A stretch of 22,268 bases of DNA from a virus. Location of the stretch: IMG/VR virus record IMGVR_UViG_3300048579_000065; one strand, given 5' to 3'. The notes under the pieces are model-generated. The model saw only the letters and a list, made by a program, of their open reading frames with translations. It was not told where the DNA came from and searched no databases. Positions 12,406 through 22,223 of the stretch are shown one piece after another (the stretch's first letter is position 1; every line of letters begins with the position of its first letter). A program made the position numbers and the translations under genes.

Positions 12406-12576
12406 ATGGACAGTAGAGAAGAGGCCTTAATAAGAAAGATTCAAAGACTCTATGATGAACTAGCACAGGCTAGGAAGGATCTAATGCTTTATAGAAGAGA
12501 AAAGAGTCTACCTGGAGATGAGATTTATAGGAAAGAAGGAGCAAAGATTGTAGGTTATGGATCTAAGCAAGATTAA
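12406..12576 (+). CDS. Small coiled-coil hypothetical protein
   Basis: MDSREEALIRKIQRLYDELAQARKDL; start uncertain. Confidence 0.55.
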   Translation: MDSREEALIRKIQRLYDELAQARKDLMLYRREKSLPGDEIYRKEGAKIVGYGSKQD

Positions 12577-13129
12577 GTTTATAGAAAGCCCAAACAAGTC
12601 TAAAGGCCGTGCTGGAGCTAAGATTGAATACCTTATTATCCACTCAATGGCAGGGTACTTTCAAGGCTCTATCAGTTGGTTCAAGAATCCAAAGTCACAA
12701 GTAAGTGCTCACTACCTCATCTCACAGAAAGGTGAGATAGTACAAATGGTAAAGGATACAGACACTGCATGGCACTGTCATGGGTGTAATAAAAATTCAA
12801 TTGGGGTCGAGATGGATGACTTGAAAGACTCATCAAAACCTGGCTGGATAACTCCTAAACTATGGGAAGCAACAGTTAACTTGACAGCCACGCTAGCCTC
12901 AAAGTACAATATTCCTGTAGAAAAGATCTACACACATGGAGATCCTTATATCAGAAAGATTAATGGTCCTAAGTTTGCTCATAGTGACCCAATCTTATTT
13001 GATATAGCAAAGTTTAGAAAGGAAGTGAAGGAATGTCAATTATCCATGATAAAGAATACTACCTCTGTGGTAAAAGAGGTCAAACAGTCTGGACCCTCAG
13101 ATACAAAGATGGGAAATGGAAAAAAGTAA
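12557..13129 (+). CDS. N-acetylmuramoyl-L-alanine amidase (Amidase_2), probable endolysin
   Basis: IIHSM, SAHYLI, AWHC, NSIGVE, TH and HSDP zinc-amidase motifs; no cell-wall-binding domain. Confidence 0.92.
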   Translation: MDLSKIKFIESPNKSKGRAGAKIEYLIIHSMAGYFQGSISWFKNPKSQVSAHYLISQKGEIVQMVKDTDTAWHCHGCNKNSIGVEMDDLKDSSKPGWITPKLWEATVNLTATLASKYNIPVEKIYTHGDPYIRKINGPKFAHSDPILFDIAKFRKEVKECQLSMIKNTTSVVKEVKQSGPSDTKMGNGKK

Positions 13130-13919: not shown

Positions 13920-14173
13920 CAGAAGAGATTGACTGGGATCATAGATGGAGAAAGGCAGCTGTCTCTAGAATGAGAGGTGAGGATGTTCTTAAACATGGTA
14001 CATCCTTCTGTGCCATGTGTAATTGGAGAACAGGAGGGATGGCTTGGCTGTGTAACCTGTGTTATCCTTGTGATAAGTGTACATATCCTAAAAGCAACTG
14101 TCATTGTAATAATGAGAGGTTTAAGAAACACCTTAAGGACTGTGAGCAAGAGTCAGGGCTGAAACTAACATGA
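13916..14173 (+). CDS. Cys-rich zinc-finger-like protein
   Basis: CAMC...CNLCYPCDKC...CHC; ATGA coupling at both ends. Confidence 0.7.
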   Translation: MTEEIDWDHRWRKAAVSRMRGEDVLKHGTSFCAMCNWRTGGMAWLCNLCYPCDKCTYPKSNCHCNNERFKKHLKDCEQESGLKLT

Positions 14174-14679
14174 TAATTGAGAAAGAAAGGATAATATCCT
14201 ATACTGGACACAGGCCCGGACCTAAAATCTTCAAGTCAGACTATTATTCTGATGAGAACTTTAATACTCTTGTAGACTTTGCTTGTCAAGTCTTACTGAG
14301 AGAAAAGCCTGATTTATCAATCACTGGTGGAGCTTTAGGATGGGATCAGGCAGTAGCTCAGGCTAGCTTAAATTTAGCTATGCCATATGAATTACACATA
14401 CCATTTGAGGGCTTTGATTCTAACTGGCCTACTAAATCAAGAAACAGATTAAAAGATCTCATGGAAAGTGCTGAAAAAGTTAAGGTAGTATGTGGTTCCT
14501 ATTCTTTAGGTGCTTACCAGAAGAGGAATGAAAGTATGGTTGATACTTCTGATAAAGTAATAGCTTTGTTTGATTTTAGCTCAGGTGGTACAGCAAATTG
14601 TGTTAGCTATGCTAAAAGTAAAAACAAGCCAATAACACATGTGTACCATGCCTGGCTAGAGTATAGAGATGCAAAATAA
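14170..14679 (+). CDS. SLOG-superfamily YpsA/DUF1273-like protein
   Basis: YTGHRP, TGGALGWDQ, IPF, QKRNESMVD, GGTANCVSYA. Confidence 0.88.
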   Translation: MIIEKERIISYTGHRPGPKIFKSDYYSDENFNTLVDFACQVLLREKPDLSITGGALGWDQAVAQASLNLAMPYELHIPFEGFDSNWPTKSRNRLKDLMESAEKVKVVCGSYSLGAYQKRNESMVDTSDKVIALFDFSSGGTANCVSYAKSKNKPITHVYHAWLEYRDAK

Positions 14680-17713: not shown

Positions 17714-17973
17714 AGTTGTTTGGTAGTGAAATAACTCCTAGAGGTAGTAATCGTAAGTATGTCGAGCTAGATGATTTAGATAACCTGTTCACTATACTAC
17801 TTACTAAGAGTATAGGGCAATTTGCAAAAGAAACAGGAATACCTTATAATTCAATAAGGCATAGAGTTCATAAGTATTTTACTCAAGAAATGATTGATAA
17901 AATAAGAAGAGAAAGACGCTTCCACACTAAAAAGGCAGGTAAATTAGATGGATCTAGTAACGGAACTGATTAA
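17707..17973 (+). CDS. Helix-turn-helix DNA-binding protein
   Basis: SIGQFAKETGIPYNSIRHRV; basic C-terminus; GAGG SD. Confidence 0.7.
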   Translation: MVKLFGSEITPRGSNRKYVELDDLDNLFTILLTKSIGQFAKETGIPYNSIRHRVHKYFTQEMIDKIRRERRFHTKKAGKLDGSSNGTD

Positions 17974-18271
17974 GCAACCTTTGGTTCAAGGTCTTGTACT
18001 TAAACAAATAATGGATATTGTTAAGGTTTGGCTTAAGAAGGTTGATGATGAAGGTCTAGCCAAGCAGCATATTGGATGGCTGCAACCTAGCCTTGTATTC
18101 CTTACATTACTTACATCAGCTATAAGCCTAGCATTACAAGGTCAGTTGAGTTCTCTTGATTTAAGTCAACTCCAGGTTTACCTTTTGGCTGTAGTTCAAA
18201 CTTATGTAGGTGCTAAGGCCGCTGGAACTGTAACTACTCAGAAGGTTACTAACAAAGTTTTGGGTAAGTAG
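17948..18271 (+). CDS. Holin-like two-TM membrane protein
   Basis: 107 aa; TM segments WLQPSLVFLTLLTSAISLAL and LQVYLLAVVQTYVGA; basic tail. Holin role is inferred. Confidence 0.5.
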   Translation: MDLVTELIKQPLVQGLVLKQIMDIVKVWLKKVDDEGLAKQHIGWLQPSLVFLTLLTSAISLALQGQLSSLDLSQLQVYLLAVVQTYVGAKAAGTVTTQKVTNKVLGK

Positions 18272-18290
18272 TAGAATTATTCTATTACTT
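18266..18290 (+). other. Inverted repeat/hairpin over the stop codon of the holin-like gene
   Basis: aagtagtagaat-t-attctattactt (one G-U pair). Confidence 0.5.
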
Positions 18291-18307
18291 CATTAAGGTA
18301 TCCTTTA

Positions 18308-18547
18308 GTGTCTCAAGAAACCGTGCTAAATCTTGTACTATCTCAGTTAGAGGACCAAAGGGAAGACCTTAAAGCCCTAATACAGAAGGTAGATGCCTTA
18401 CAAACCACTCTAGGTACAGAGACACATCAACTTAAGATGGCTCAAGCTAAATGTGAGAACCGGTGGGGAATAATGGGTAAAGTATTAACACTAGGCCTAC
18501 CATCAACCGGCCTATTTGCTTGGATTAGTTCATGGCATCAGAAGTAA
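18308..18547 (+). CDS. Coiled-coil protein with C-terminal hydrophobic segment (XhlA/holin-accessory-like architecture)
   Basis: LSQLEDQREDLKALIQKVDALQ...; WGIMGKVLTLGLPSTGLFAWI; TAAGGT SD with GTG start. Confidence 0.55.
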   Translation: MSQETVLNLVLSQLEDQREDLKALIQKVDALQTTLGTETHQLKMAQAKCENRWGIMGKVLTLGLPSTGLFAWISSWHQK

Positions 18548-18550
18548 TGA

Positions 18551-19636
18551 ATGGAAATACTTTTATACTTAATAATAGCTTACCTGTATGGATCTCTGGC
18601 TGAGTTTGTGGCCCATAGATTTTTCATGCACAAGCCTTGGCTAAAGAGCATCTACAGGATGCATGGCCAGCATCATAGAGCCTATCCAACCCAATTTTTC
18701 AACAAACATAAGTCTAAAGAACATCAATTTAGCAATCTTGTTTTGTGCCTAGAGCACATGCTAGTATTTACATTACCAGCCGTGGCTATAACCTACCTAT
18801 TCAATCATACATTAAGTATAGTATTGTTATTATTTGGTATAGTGCATTTTCATTTCTATAATGAAGTTCATACAGCTATGCACACTAATAGTAGGTGGCT
18901 TCCAAAGTGGTTAGTGTGGCATCATTTCATGCACCACTCTCACCCTACTAAGTTTCTATGTGTTTCCTTACCATTCTGGGACTGGATTTTTAGAACCACA
19001 TGTAAGATGACTCCTAAAGACAAGGCTCATTGGAAAAGATTAAGTACACAAAAGAGTACAAAAACTGAGATAAAGTCTAAGATAATGGACCTTGATAATT
19101 GTGTGCTATCTACAAGATACCTTAAGAATGGTGCTGTCAGTGAGTTTCCAGGCTTTCTAATCAAAGTAGGTAAGAAACCTGTAATCTATTATGCTAATCA
19201 TATGAGCTGGAGAGATCCAATAATATTAGCCAAGAGACTTGGTGCTAGAACTATGGTACATCAGAATGTAATGAACTTTCTCTGGCTAGGACTTATATTA
19301 GGACCACTGTTTGGATTCTTTAGTGTAAACAAGCCAGGAAAGGTGGCAATAGATGGGGCATGGAAAGTCTTAACCAAGTATAAACAACCTATCTTAATAT
19401 TTCCTGAAGGATTAACTAACCTCTCAAATCAGCCAACTAGACCATTCAAATCAGGCCTGGCTAGAATAATTGAACAATCACCTGATAACATACCAGTCAT
19501 TGGTATTAAAATTGATTATGAACATTATATGCCAGCCTGGATAGAGAAATTTCCACACTGGATACAGTTCGTGCTAACTCTATTTCATCCTCACGCTTAT
19601 TGTCGATATACTATAAGTGAGTTAGAGGATTATTAA
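18551..19636 (+). CDS. Fusion of fatty-acid hydroxylase/sterol desaturase-family di-iron enzyme and PlsC-type lysophospholipid acyltransferase
   Basis: N-terminal His boxes HRFFMH, HGQHH, HTAMH and HHFMHH with TM helices; C-terminal ANHMSWRD (HX4D), IFPEG and RPFKSG; one uninterrupted frame. Confidence 0.88.
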   Translation: MEILLYLIIAYLYGSLAEFVAHRFFMHKPWLKSIYRMHGQHHRAYPTQFFNKHKSKEHQFSNLVLCLEHMLVFTLPAVAITYLFNHTLSIVLLLFGIVHFHFYNEVHTAMHTNSRWLPKWLVWHHFMHHSHPTKFLCVSLPFWDWIFRTTCKMTPKDKAHWKRLSTQKSTKTEIKSKIMDLDNCVLSTRYLKNGAVSEFPGFLIKVGKKPVIYYANHMSWRDPIILAKRLGARTMVHQNVMNFLWLGLILGPLFGFFSVNKPGKVAIDGAWKVLTKYKQPILIFPEGLTNLSNQPTRPFKSGLARIIEQSPDNIPVIGIKIDYEHYMPAWIEKFPHWIQFVLTLFHPHAYCRYTISELEDY

Positions 19637-19657
19637 TTTTATGAGGAAAGTCTGTAA

Positions 19658-20536
19658 ATGACTACAGCACTTCTGTTAGCGGGAGGTGGTAGCAGGTCAG
19701 CTATCTCAGCAGGCTCACTAAAGTACATAAAGGAGTCTGGAATAGTTCCTGATGCTGTTTATGGAGCTTCAGGTGGAGCATTAAATGGCATCTTGTACTT
19801 ACAAGATGAGATGGAAGAGCTTGAAAAGCTTTGGCTAAACATTAGTAATGATCAAGTCTATAAAAGCAAGATACTAAGCCTTTGGCAGGTGTTTACAGAT
19901 CAAGGCTCCATATACAACTCAAAGCCACTTGAGAAATTACTAAGAAAGTTATTTAACAAAGAGAAGATTGATTCTCTTAAAATACCATTTTATGTTGGAA
20001 CCTCAAATATAACTAAGCTAAGACCTGAGATTAGAGACATAAGAGGTATGGAGTATGAAGAACAGATTAAGTGGTTACTAGCCTCGGCTAGCCCTCCTAT
20101 CTTATTTCCTACTGTGCCTTTTAAGTTTGGTGATGAACTACATGATTTAGTAGATGCTGGCCTCTGCACAAATTATTTTATTAATCAAGCAATAAATGAT
20201 GGACATGACACTATAATCTGTGTGTCTCCTACAAACTTCCAATCAAAACCACCTAAAAACCTTCTAGATATAGTGCAGGCAACAATCTCAACGGCTACAT
20301 TTAATTATTTAGATAGAGAAATTAAGGCAGTTGAGAAGATTAATAAGATTATTGATATGGCCAACATAGAGCTTACTAATGACATTAGGAAAATTTCTCT
20401 TGTCTTGGTGAGGCCAAAACAACCATGGGACCAAGGACTAATTGATTTTAACTACAAGGTTGATAGGAAATCTTTAATTGATTTTGGCTATAACATAGCT
20501 AAGAGTGCCTTAAATGCAAAGAAAGGAAATCCTTAA
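19658..20536 (+). CDS. Patatin-like phospholipase
   Basis: LAGGGSR oxyanion loop, GASGG nucleophile elbow, ASASPPILFP, catalytic DAG; GAGG SD. Confidence 0.93.
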   Translation: MTTALLLAGGGSRSAISAGSLKYIKESGIVPDAVYGASGGALNGILYLQDEMEELEKLWLNISNDQVYKSKILSLWQVFTDQGSIYNSKPLEKLLRKLFNKEKIDSLKIPFYVGTSNITKLRPEIRDIRGMEYEEQIKWLLASASPPILFPTVPFKFGDELHDLVDAGLCTNYFINQAINDGHDTIICVSPTNFQSKPPKNLLDIVQATISTATFNYLDREIKAVEKINKIIDMANIELTNDIRKISLVLVRPKQPWDQGLIDFNYKVDRKSLIDFGYNIAKSALNAKKGNP

Positions 20537-21046
20537 ATGCGTGTAGACCTAAATAAGTTTAATAGGTCCAATCTTAATTCTGATCAAAAGTCAGCGCTAA
20601 TAGTATTAGCCCCACTAAGTCTTTTAATCTCAGATTGGATTATAGCAAAGTGTAGGTTCCTACAAAAACCAGGAAAATTGTATAGGAGTATCATTTTGGC
20701 TGATCTTCTAATAGAATCAGAGTTTATGACACATCCTGTTAGCAAAGAGTTCATTGGAACTAAGTGTAGTAATAACATCACTAAGATCAAGGCTGATAAT
20801 GATTGGAGAGGTAGAGTGATAGAGTACGAAAAGGAAGGATACAGATCTTACAGAGATTCTAGCCATTTTGCGTCTGATTACACTGACATCATTTGCTTTA
20901 CTAATAAATATGATGACACCTTAGCTGAGACAGACTATAAGTGTCAATTGACTAGATTTTCTACCTTCAAGCCTAATCCAAAATTGTATAATAGTAAGAG
21001 TGAAACTATTATAGAGTTCTATGGGTTAGGTGAATTTGATGGCTAA
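20537..21046 (+). CDS. Divergent GH73/FlgJ-like peptidoglycan hydrolase
   Basis: ILADLLIES (cf. AQAxLES), NNITKIKA..W.G (cf. NNLFGIKA), YRSY..DY (cf. FRxY), C-terminal IIEFYGLGEFD; YATD motif degenerate. Confidence 0.6.
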   Translation: MRVDLNKFNRSNLNSDQKSALIVLAPLSLLISDWIIAKCRFLQKPGKLYRSIILADLLIESEFMTHPVSKEFIGTKCSNNITKIKADNDWRGRVIEYEKEGYRSYRDSSHFASDYTDIICFTNKYDDTLAETDYKCQLTRFSTFKPNPKLYNSKSETIIEFYGLGEFDG

Positions 21047-22223
21047 AGAAAAAGACGAATTAGAAATACTTAAGAAAGAACTTAATATTGTTCCAGCTAC
21101 AAAGTATAAGAGAATCAGGCAGAAATGTGATTGCTTATCTTTTGGTGTGTTTCCAGTAGACTTTGCTATCAGTGAGATAGATGAAGATGGTTTTTCTGGA
21201 ATAAGAGAAAGAGACTGTTTTGAACTTCTAGGCCCTAACAATAGCCTCAAAACTGCCTTATCTATTCAGATGATTAAGAAAACTCTAGATAGGTATGGTC
21301 CTTACTCAGTTTTTGGTATTTGGACTGAGCCATTTGATCCTGACAGAATGGAGCAAGCTGGCATAGATCTTGATCAGATCCTCATGTATGAGCTTTATGA
21401 AATAGATGAGGAAACAGGACAAGTTAAGATTAAACAAGATATGGCTGAAGTGGCGTTTGCCTCAGCATTAGAATTGGCCAAAAATCCTAGAACCAGGCTT
21501 ACATTTATTGACAGTCTTTCGGCTGCTATGCCAAGCCTACAGATGTTTGATAAGAAAAATGTAAGAGATCTTGATAGTAATCCAGTAGCAGCATCTGCCA
21601 AGGTTGTAAATAACTTTGTTAATAAGTTCAAGAATCTTGCTGCAAGGTCGGTGCTAGGCTACATTTCACATTATAATGAACCAATAACCTTTGACATTCA
21701 ACAAGTCTTTATGGATCAGACTAAGATTCATACAAGAGGTGGTAATGGTAAAGATTTTGCTGCTGATGTGAGGATTCTATGTAACTCAACAATTAAGCTA
21801 AATGATGAAAAGCATTCAGTATTTGGCACTAAGCAAGGTGAGATGTATAATTGCACTTGGAAGATTATTAAAAATAAATACAGTCCAAGTGTTCCATACA
21901 GAACCCCTACAGGTGAATTTGATCCTAAAACTGGTAAGTTTAATGATGAAGAAACAATTATTAAATGTGCTTCATTTTTTGCTGAGAAAGATAAGCAGGA
22001 TGTTATTCATTCCAAGCTTGATCCTAAAGTCTATACAGGTGGCTCCTGGATTACAATTGGTAATGAAAAGTTCCAAGGCATAGATAAAGCCGAGGCTTAC
22101 CTTAAACAACATCCAGAGATAGTTGACAAATTGGCTAAACAAATGTATCCTTTGAATGGGCAGTTCTTTGAGGACGTTAGACCTAGTTTAGAGGAACTTA
22201 TGGAGAATGGTAGCCAAATTTAA
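21039..22223 (+). CDS. recA: RecA/UvsX-like recombinase
   Basis: ELLGPNNSLKT (variant Walker A), FIDSLSA (Walker B), TRGGNGKDFAADVRI, KIIKNK, GSW...FQG; ATG 21039 behind AGGTG. Confidence 0.85.
   Translation: MAKEKDELEILKKELNIVPATKYKRIRQKCDCLSFGVFPVDFAISEIDEDGFSGIRERDCFELLGPNNSLKTALSIQMIKKTLDRYGPYSVFGIWTEPFDPDRMEQAGIDLDQILMYELYEIDEETGQVKIKQDMAEVAFASALELAKNPRTRLTFIDSLSAAMPSLQMFDKKNVRDLDSNPVAASAKVVNNFVNKFKNLAARSVLGYISHYNEPITFDIQQVFMDQTKIHTRGGNGKDFAADVRILCNSTIKLNDEKHSVFGTKQGEMYNCTWKIIKNKYSPSVPYRTPTGEFDPKTGKFNDEETIIKCASFFAEKDKQDVIHSKLDPKVYTGGSWITIGNEKFQGIDKAEAYLKQHPEIVDKLAKQMYPLNGQFFEDVRPSLEELMENGSQI

Follow-up and report, generated by a model that had tools for sequence, protein, structure and literature searches.

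We analysed a 22,268-nucleotide stretch of viral DNA (IMG/VR record IMGVR_UViG_3300048579_000065; hereafter the window, meaning this stretch at its full length), in which two neighbouring genes encode three domains predicted to act on lipids. The first gene fuses a di-iron hydroxylase/desaturase domain to an acyltransferase domain, and the second encodes a patatin-like lipase; the two open reading frames (ORFs; 18551-19636 and 19658-20536) are co-oriented and separated by a 21-nt gap. The initial annotation, made from the sequence alone, had described the pair in these terms with all catalytic motifs intact, and the ORFs, the Pfam matches, the motif positions, the residues invariant among homologues and the AlphaFold2 (AF2) folds all agree with that description. 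It had also assigned the genes to a phage, which is borne out by genes for a family A DNA polymerase, a class II ribonucleotide reductase (RNR), a dCTP deaminase, an Amidase_2 endolysin and a UvsX-like recombinase; all the genes of the window lie on one strand, with dense small ORFs between the named ones, and its source is an uncultured tailed phage. The features of the two genes are the following.

18551-19636, plus strand: fusion gene, encoding a 361-aa bifunctional membrane protein (di-iron hydroxylase/desaturase plus LPLAT acyltransferase); basis, ORF, Pfam, alignment and AF2
18551-19045, plus strand: FA_hydroxylase-superfamily domain, residues 1-165; basis, Pfam PF04116, Foldseek and a dN/dS of 0.065
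18614-18631, 18662-18676, 18869-18883 and 18920-18937, plus strand: His boxes HRFFMH (residues 22-27), HGQHH (38-42), HTAMH (107-111) and HHFMHH (124-129)
19046-19165, plus strand: inter-domain linker, approximately residues 166-205, with a conserved LDNC motif (C184, nt 19091-19102)
19166-19636, plus strand: LPLAT (PlsC-superfamily) acyltransferase domain; basis, Pfam PF01553, family profile and Foldseek
19196-19216, 19400-19411 and 19445-19456, plus strand: acyltransferase motifs NHMSWRD (HX4D, residues 216-222), FPEG (284-287) and FKSG
19658-20536, plus strand: patatin-like lipase gene, 292 aa; basis, Pfam, conserved residues, AF2 and fold
19682-19696, 19763-19777 and 20153-20161, plus strand: patatin motifs GGGSR (residues 9-13), GASGG (36-40) and DAG (166-168)

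The frame is open across all 361 codons of the fusion gene, and homologues of 362-424 aa align over 95-100% of the fusion protein. The deposited gene call (P0002) contains only the C-terminal 209 aa, since it begins at Met153 (about position 19007); the entire di-iron hydroxylase domain is omitted from it, and a database annotation would show an acyltransferase alone. The ATG at 18551 lacks a strong Shine-Dalgarno sequence. When the gene was compared with its homologue in the independent assembly L001 (80% identical in protein), the ratio of nonsynonymous to synonymous substitution rates (dN/dS) was 0.089 for the whole gene, 0.065 for the N-terminal half and 0.064 for the C-terminal half, values that are approximate given that dS between the two sequences is near saturation. 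Over codons 1-152, the mismatches were distributed 29:11:62 by codon position. This pattern and the ratio of 0.065 show that the N-terminal half is both coding and constrained. The linker is under relaxed constraint (dN/dS 0.40), and its cysteine C184 is invariant in the family alignment. That alignment, which comprises 20 members with 29-80% identity, showed ten further invariant residues (H38, H41, H42, H107, H111, H125, H128, H129, H217 and D222), and H27 was nearly invariant. The AF2 model of the fusion protein reached a mean predicted local distance difference test score (pLDDT) of 84.6.

The N-terminal domain matched Pfam PF04116 (FA_hydroxylase) over residues 8-149 with 33.0 bits against a cut-off of 31, a small margin, and the full profile was covered. 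Foldseek aligned it with the Scs7p hydroxylase (4zr1_B; probability 1.0, 161 columns, root mean square deviation 3.7, template modelling (TM) score by target 0.40). Its nearest neighbours by language-model features were clusters of uncharacterised 148-171-aa FA_hydroxylase proteins, 63-82% viral, one of which has 2,392 members. No NCBIfam or PHROG family matched the domain, its FA_hydroxylase subfamily was not assignable, and a word-based search for short stand-alone homologues of the domain returned none; cluster names read only "fatty acid hydroxylase superfamily" or "sterol desaturase". These features point to an O2-dependent oxidation of a lipid, by hydroxylation or desaturation, as the predicted activity. 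Hydropathy and the AF2 model suggest about three membrane helices, with all the His boxes placed after helices 1 and 3; from this placement, the topology would be N-out and both catalytic centres of the protein would face the cytoplasm.

The C-terminal domain matched Pfam PF01553 (Acyltransferase) over residues 208-319 with 44.3 bits against a cut-off of 23, and its Foldseek matches were GPAT1, PatA and PlsC. Within the FPEG motif, P285 and G287 are nearly invariant in the 20 sequences; a few members have serine in place of E286, which is fully conserved only in A2, a subset of 7 sequences. The family profile aligned with Thermotoga maritima PlsC (5kym) at E 1.5e-11, and this alignment showed that the blocks read FLDR and FPEGTRS in PlsC correspond to cfsva and cpeGwae in the family profile; the arginines of blocks II and III are therefore replaced by non-basic residues, and at the same sites the window protein reads FFSVNK and FPEGLTN. 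In lysophospholipid acyltransferases (LPLATs), these two arginines bind the phosphate of glycerol-3-phosphate or lysophosphatidic acid (LPA). Since both are replaced, the acceptor is probably not LPA, and the sequence suggests that the acyl chain probably goes to a hydroxyl that has no free phosphate beside it, for example that of a lysophospholipid other than LPA or that of a hydroxylated lipid. For the same reason, complementation of a plsC(ts) strain by this domain, which the initial annotation had proposed, seems unlikely from the residues present. A bona fide PlsC (TIGR00530, the NCBIfam model AGP_acyltrn) was considered and rejected, because the domain scored 39 bits against a cut-off of 102.95 and the block II and III arginines are replaced. 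A faint match to an Aas-type acyl-ACP:phospholipid acyltransferase was also observed (E 0.0024).

The patatin matched Pfam PF01734 over residues 5-179 with 88 bits against a cut-off of 27.7. The residues S38, G40, D166 and G168 are invariant in 13 patatins, and the first glycine of the GxSxG motif varies among the homologues. Its AF2 model (pLDDT 87.4) folds most closely like PlpD, CapE/CapV and potato patatin (TM score 0.68-0.79 to PlpD), and no hydrophobic segment or signal peptide was found in the protein. Sequence and model together identify it as a predicted intact, soluble Ser-Asp acyl hydrolase. We also considered an effector of the CapV type, from the cyclic-oligonucleotide-based antiphage signalling system (CBASS; NF041079); this was rejected, because the score was 28.8 bits against a cut-off of 200 and no cyclase is present in the window. 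PADLOC returned only a generic phospholipase effector match for the patatin (36.6 bits).

The order of genes around the pair was compared among related contigs, for which the following neighbours of the window are needed.

17948-18271, plus strand: o107, a protein with hydrophobic helices; no family match
18308-18547, plus strand: o79, a protein with a coiled-coil N-terminus and a hydrophobic C-terminus; no family match
20537-21046, plus strand: GH73-like (glucosaminidase-like) protein, 169 aa; Pfam Glucosaminidase, E 3.3e-5, 25 bits against a cut-off of 30.2
21030-22223, plus strand: UvsX/RecA-like recombinase, third member of the patatin-GH73-UvsX block; phrog_97, E 5.8e-22, and synteny

The order o79-fusion-patatin-GH73-like-UvsX was common to the window and to the independent assemblies L001 and L016/L005, the last two being 99.9% identical in nucleotides. 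The fusion and UvsX proteins of L016 are 55% and 59% identical to those of the window, respectively. A chimeric contig, which had been named as a way in which the initial interpretation could fail, is excluded at this point by the junctions that these assemblies share. In a maximum-likelihood (ML) tree, the fusions that are adjacent to a patatin formed a single derived clade (85/77). The sister lineage L002 has a DUF7873 gene (L002:11164-11901, 262 bits) 3' of the fusion gene in place of the patatin, and at six more distant fusion loci (L003, L004 and L011-L014) no patatin was found within 8-10 kb; there the fusion gene lies between large genes, at a position that is conserved but is not that of the window. 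The reverse case is seen at five related loci (L006-L010), which carry a patatin in the same syntenic slot, ahead of the GH73-like gene and UvsX; no fusion gene was found in their flanks (1-6 kb fetched per side). Directly 3' of o79, where the window has the fusion gene, these patatin-only relatives carry unrelated ORFs of 95-280 aa that Pfam does not match. The expected linkage of the two genes in related genomes thus holds for three lineages of one clade (the window, L001 and L016/L005) and fails in L002, in the six distant fusion loci and in the five patatin-only loci, within flanks of 1-10 kb; this is not the pattern of an obligate cassette.

The patatin has also diverged at odds with its surroundings. 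Between the window and L001 (2174-3052), the patatins are 55% identical and the flanking genes 80-93%, and between the window and L006 (6001-6867), the patatins are 74% identical and their neighbours 48-53%. Similarly, the patatin of L008 is 53-58% identical to the others, and the neighbours in that contig are 21-29% identical. These discrepancies indicate that the allele beside the fusion gene was replaced without its supposed partner. In our reading, the patatin is an older resident of this phage group, exchanged among phages by recombination.

The family to which the fusion belongs is small and has no name. A HMMER search of 1.84 billion representatives detected 164 proteins at E<=0.001, 16 of them at E<1e-30; the two-domain forms among these 16 measure approximately 370-440 aa, and the remaining matches cover one half only. 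None of the two-domain relatives is a named protein; all come from metagenomes, on contigs that reach 122-126 kb, and every genomic context that we fetched was phage-like, with dense, co-oriented small ORFs; the family has so far been seen only on phage-like metagenomic contigs. The fusion had no match by tblastn in the INPHARED phage collection. Against PHROGs, neither of its halves matched a family at a threshold as loose as E<=1, nor did the patatin, and scans of IMG/VR with the fusion, P0028 and the patatin returned no relatives; alignment A1 was too divergent for pattern scans. When the species genomes of GTDB (185,579 in number) were scanned with a pattern from A2, again no relative was found, with the limited sensitivity of a single peptide pattern. 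In the ML tree, which comprises 21 fusion proteins, the subgroup of the window was monophyletic (100/100) and nested within longer family forms. Two stand-alone hydroxylase homologues, P0036 and P0039, end exactly at the linker motif (DxC). Furthermore, P0036 and an acyltransferase-only protein, P0043, together tile the fusion, and for each of them the longest contig listed is 26,828 bp, which hints at a putative natural split form. At one of the distant fusion loci (L013:9263-9709), a gene for a HAD/PNKP-type phosphatase overlaps the fusion gene by 4 nt and gave a faint match to the lipin-like LNS2 domain (E 0.0048); its product could be a further protein with a lipid function beside the fusion, or no more than an enzyme of DNA-end repair.

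Taken together, these observations lead us to favour, with a probability of roughly 55%, a model in which the locus holds two separable lipid-acting modules: a fusion enzyme that probably oxidises and acylates one membrane lipid, and an older, recombining patatin, which met once at a variable slot. According to this model, the fusion protein would consist of a small membrane-embedded di-iron domain, a conserved linker and an LPLAT domain at the cytoplasmic face, and it would carry out two consecutive steps on one membrane lipid, an O2-dependent oxidation and the transfer of an acyl chain onto an acceptor hydroxyl. The covalent union of the domains, the invariance of both active sites and the putative split forms that break at the linker all suggest such consecutive steps. 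Candidate acceptors are a lysolipid, such as lysophosphatidylethanolamine (lyso-PE), or a hydroxyl newly made by the first domain. The patatin always stands just upstream of the GH73-like gene and UvsX, and the fusion gene would have entered the variable slot upstream of it once, in one sub-lineage, in which it was then kept down to about 55% protein identity. A deacylation by the patatin followed by a reacylation by the fusion protein may occur in the sub-lineage of the window, yet neither gene would need it for its function. The order of the reactions, their substrate and their effect on the host are what we infer from the features described above.

The initial annotation had instead joined the two genes into one minimal Lands-cycle-like pathway, in which the patatin would deacylate host glycerophospholipids, the acyltransferase would reacylate the resulting lysolipid and the di-iron domain would oxidise the chain, so that the host membrane would be rewritten jointly in the course of infection. 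Several points speak for this cassette or against our model of separable modules. The genes are adjacent and co-oriented; 21 nt separate them both in the window and in L001, and in L016 they overlap by 7 nt, which fits co-translation; their adjacency persists in three lineages down to 55% identity, as that of a functional pair would also do. All the catalytic residues are intact and conserved, and the loss of the LPA-type arginines is compatible with a lysophospholipid acceptor and hence with a Lands-type reacylation, as is the faint Aas-type match. To these must be added that the distant fusion loci were read for 8-10 kb per side in genomes of about 120 kb, so that a patatin elsewhere is possible, and that the patatin-only loci were read for 1-6 kb per side, where the same applies to a fusion gene; the near-saturated dS likewise loosens the estimates of constraint. 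Nevertheless, each of the two genes stands alone in some related or more distant phages, the adjacency arose once, within a region that was already collinear and at a slot that holds unrelated ORFs in the relatives, and the patatin allele was swapped without its partner. A single pathway is consequently not supported, and we consider the joint cassette possible but rather unlikely. A further proposal concerns the fusion protein itself, which could be the maker of an acyloxyacyl (estolide-type) lipid: the di-iron domain would hydroxylate an acyl chain and the arginine-less LPLAT domain would then join another fatty acid to that hydroxyl through an ester bond, by the same logic as OlsA, giving a product beyond the host's own abilities. 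In the sub-lineage of the window, such an enzyme could use acyl chains or lysolipids freed by the patatin, and the altered membrane could serve to exclude superinfecting phages, to time lysis or to withstand defence effectors that target membranes. This is conceivable, and we hold it to be speculative and rather improbable.

A different grouping would place the patatin with the GH73-like gene, preceded by o107 and o79, in an envelope or lysis module, in which the patatin would attack membrane lipid, perhaps that of the outer membrane, during entry or lysis, and the fusion protein, as an addition, would adjust the inner membrane or protect it up to that moment. The LysB esterases of mycobacteriophages offer a comparison for an attack on lipids at lysis. 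The patatin-GH73-like order was kept in all seven lineages whose downstream region was readable (the window, L001, L016, L006, L009, L008 and L010), the stop of the patatin abuts the start of the GH73-like gene, and small hydrophobic proteins are encoded upstream. Yet a canonical Amidase_2 endolysin lies 5.4 kb upstream (12557-13129), a Phage_lysozyme is encoded there or close by in relatives, and the block itself is placed among replication and recombination genes. Moreover, the GH73-like protein scores under the Pfam threshold and has Q in L010 and R in L008 in place of the putative catalytic glutamate, residues 18-39 of this protein appear to be a helix of the domain and not an anchor, o107 and o79 match no holin or spanin, and the patatin has no signal peptide; we therefore judge a role in lysis to be unlikely. 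Finally, the locus could be an artefact, either a mis-assembled junction or a decaying gene with an untranslated N-terminal half, as the deposited call at Met153 and the lack of a strong Shine-Dalgarno sequence might suggest. This is very improbable in view of the 361 open codons, the dN/dS of the N-terminal half and its codon-position pattern, the His boxes that are invariant in nineteen homologues, most of them full-length, the junctions common to three independent assemblies and the even GC content. Our preferred reading therefore remains that of two separable modules.

Regarding the genes that flank the pair, the order of o107 and o79 is conserved in L001, L002, L005, L006, L009, L015 and L016; both proteins have hydrophobic segments, and no holin or spanin family was matched by either. 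The GH73-like gene follows the patatin in L001, L006, L008, L009, L010 and L016. Its product gave a FlgJ-type match, and alignment A3 showed the motifs ESxF, NNITxIK and YRSY. The putative catalytic glutamate (in IES) is kept in four closer relatives, and from its replacement, the protein may be non-catalytic in L010 and L008. A membrane anchor or signal-arrest-release (SAR) sequence was considered for this protein and rejected, since its hydrophobic residues 18-39 align with the start of the GH73 domain and appear to form its first helix. Three further features of the window lie upstream.

12557-13129, plus strand: Amidase_2 endolysin; basis, domain match and many PHROG lysis matches
14170-14679, plus strand: YpsA/SLOG-family protein; PF06908, E 3.4e-14, with a homologue also in the relative L006
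16426-16917, plus strand: 163-aa ORF with a Cys-rich C-terminus (CVLCKKPC...CCSFGQCEDDC); no family match

SLOG domains are binders of nucleotide-derived ligands. The type of endolysin differs among the relatives: in the window, an Amidase_2 protein is encoded downstream of the dCTP deaminase, and a Phage_lysozyme-family gene is found in or near the region in L006, L009 and L002 (L002:3085-3738, a faint match). The whole window had no megablast match among the INPHARED phages, nor did its UvsX match any of them, and the class II RNR had distant matches only, about 38% identical to those of Nodularia and Thermus phages, a level from which no host inference is possible. A scan of the window for consensus promoters and terminators gave background levels. 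GC content is level throughout the fusion and patatin region. Over positions 18001-19500, which include the fusion gene and the ORFs just upstream, the GC skew drops from about +0.2 to about 0 at steady GC content, which could reflect the hydrophobic codons of membrane proteins or a separate origin of the inserted gene.

The fusion family is of interest because both of its active sites are strongly constrained and because neither PHROGs nor cultured phages nor named proteins offer a relative. If the two consecutive steps that we propose are correct, this protein would be a compact, virus-encoded tool for membrane editing and a tractable route to the question of why phages remodel bacterial membranes. 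The locus also holds a lesson for annotation, given that adjacency within a collinear phage region led to the overstatement of a "pathway" and that the deposited gene call missed the oxygenase half. Both domain families and phage patatins were already known; as far as our searches reach, what is new is the covalent oxygenase-acyltransferase architecture as a conserved phage family. We found no paper on a hydroxylase-acyltransferase fusion, on phage FA_hydroxylase genes or on phage patatins in lysis. To our knowledge, the genes by which phages alter host lipids have so far been described only for single enzymes, namely desaturases, fabF and patatins.

In comparison with the FA_hydroxylase superfamily (Scs7p/FA2H, sterol desaturase, CrtZ and OlsE; PF04116), the N-terminal domain has the same HX4H, HX2HH, HX3H and HX2HH boxes on a membrane helical bundle; it differs in being only about 150 aa long, in lacking a cytochrome b5 domain and in having about three hydrophobic helices and not four. 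The C-terminal domain resembles the LPLATs of the PlsC/AGPAT type (5kym, PF01553) in its HX4D, block III FPEG and FKxG motifs, in the block IV beta-strand and in its fold, whereas its replaced arginines, its low NCBIfam score and the membrane oxygenase attached at its N-terminus set it apart. The same two Pfam families also meet on one lipid class in the synthesis of ornithine lipids, where the LPLAT OlsA acylates the hydroxyl of an acyl chain and not a glycerol phosphate, and OlsE is a hydroxylase of the FA_hydroxylase family; OlsA and OlsE are encoded by separate bacterial genes, and beyond the shared families no specific similarity of the fusion to them was detected.

Patatins have already been reported as candidate auxiliary genes in phage genomes, in the marine megaphage Mar_Mega_1 (PMC9723777), where the patatin was called the first of its kind in a phage, and in Arctic lake viruses (PMC9469726); neither report mentions an acyltransferase partner. 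The fusion is absent from every INPHARED record, and the patatin itself has only weak matches there (24-28% identity). The patatin of the window is like those of Mar_Mega_1 and the Arctic lake viruses in its intact catalytic site and like PlpD, CapE and CapV in its fold, and it carries no secretion or sensor domain. Lipid desaturases of cyanophages and the fabF and stearoyl-CoA desaturase genes of pelagimyophages are phage-borne modifiers of acyl chains that have been treated as auxiliary metabolic genes (PMC7029224); those desaturases are single-domain proteins of another desaturase family with cellular orthologues, while the fusion had no close cellular counterpart in the searches that we ran. 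A parallel to its proposed logic is the yeast Ole1-Slc1-Dga1 supercomplex, in which a membrane di-iron enzyme that modifies fatty acids is reported to be physically associated with an acyltransferase of the AGPAT family (PMC10302205), an arrangement which shows that the coupling of a di-iron enzyme with an acyltransferase is established. The resemblance is one of analogy and not of homology: the yeast complex is a non-covalent assembly of separate eukaryotic proteins with a desaturase of another family, whereas in the phage the two domains are joined in one polypeptide.

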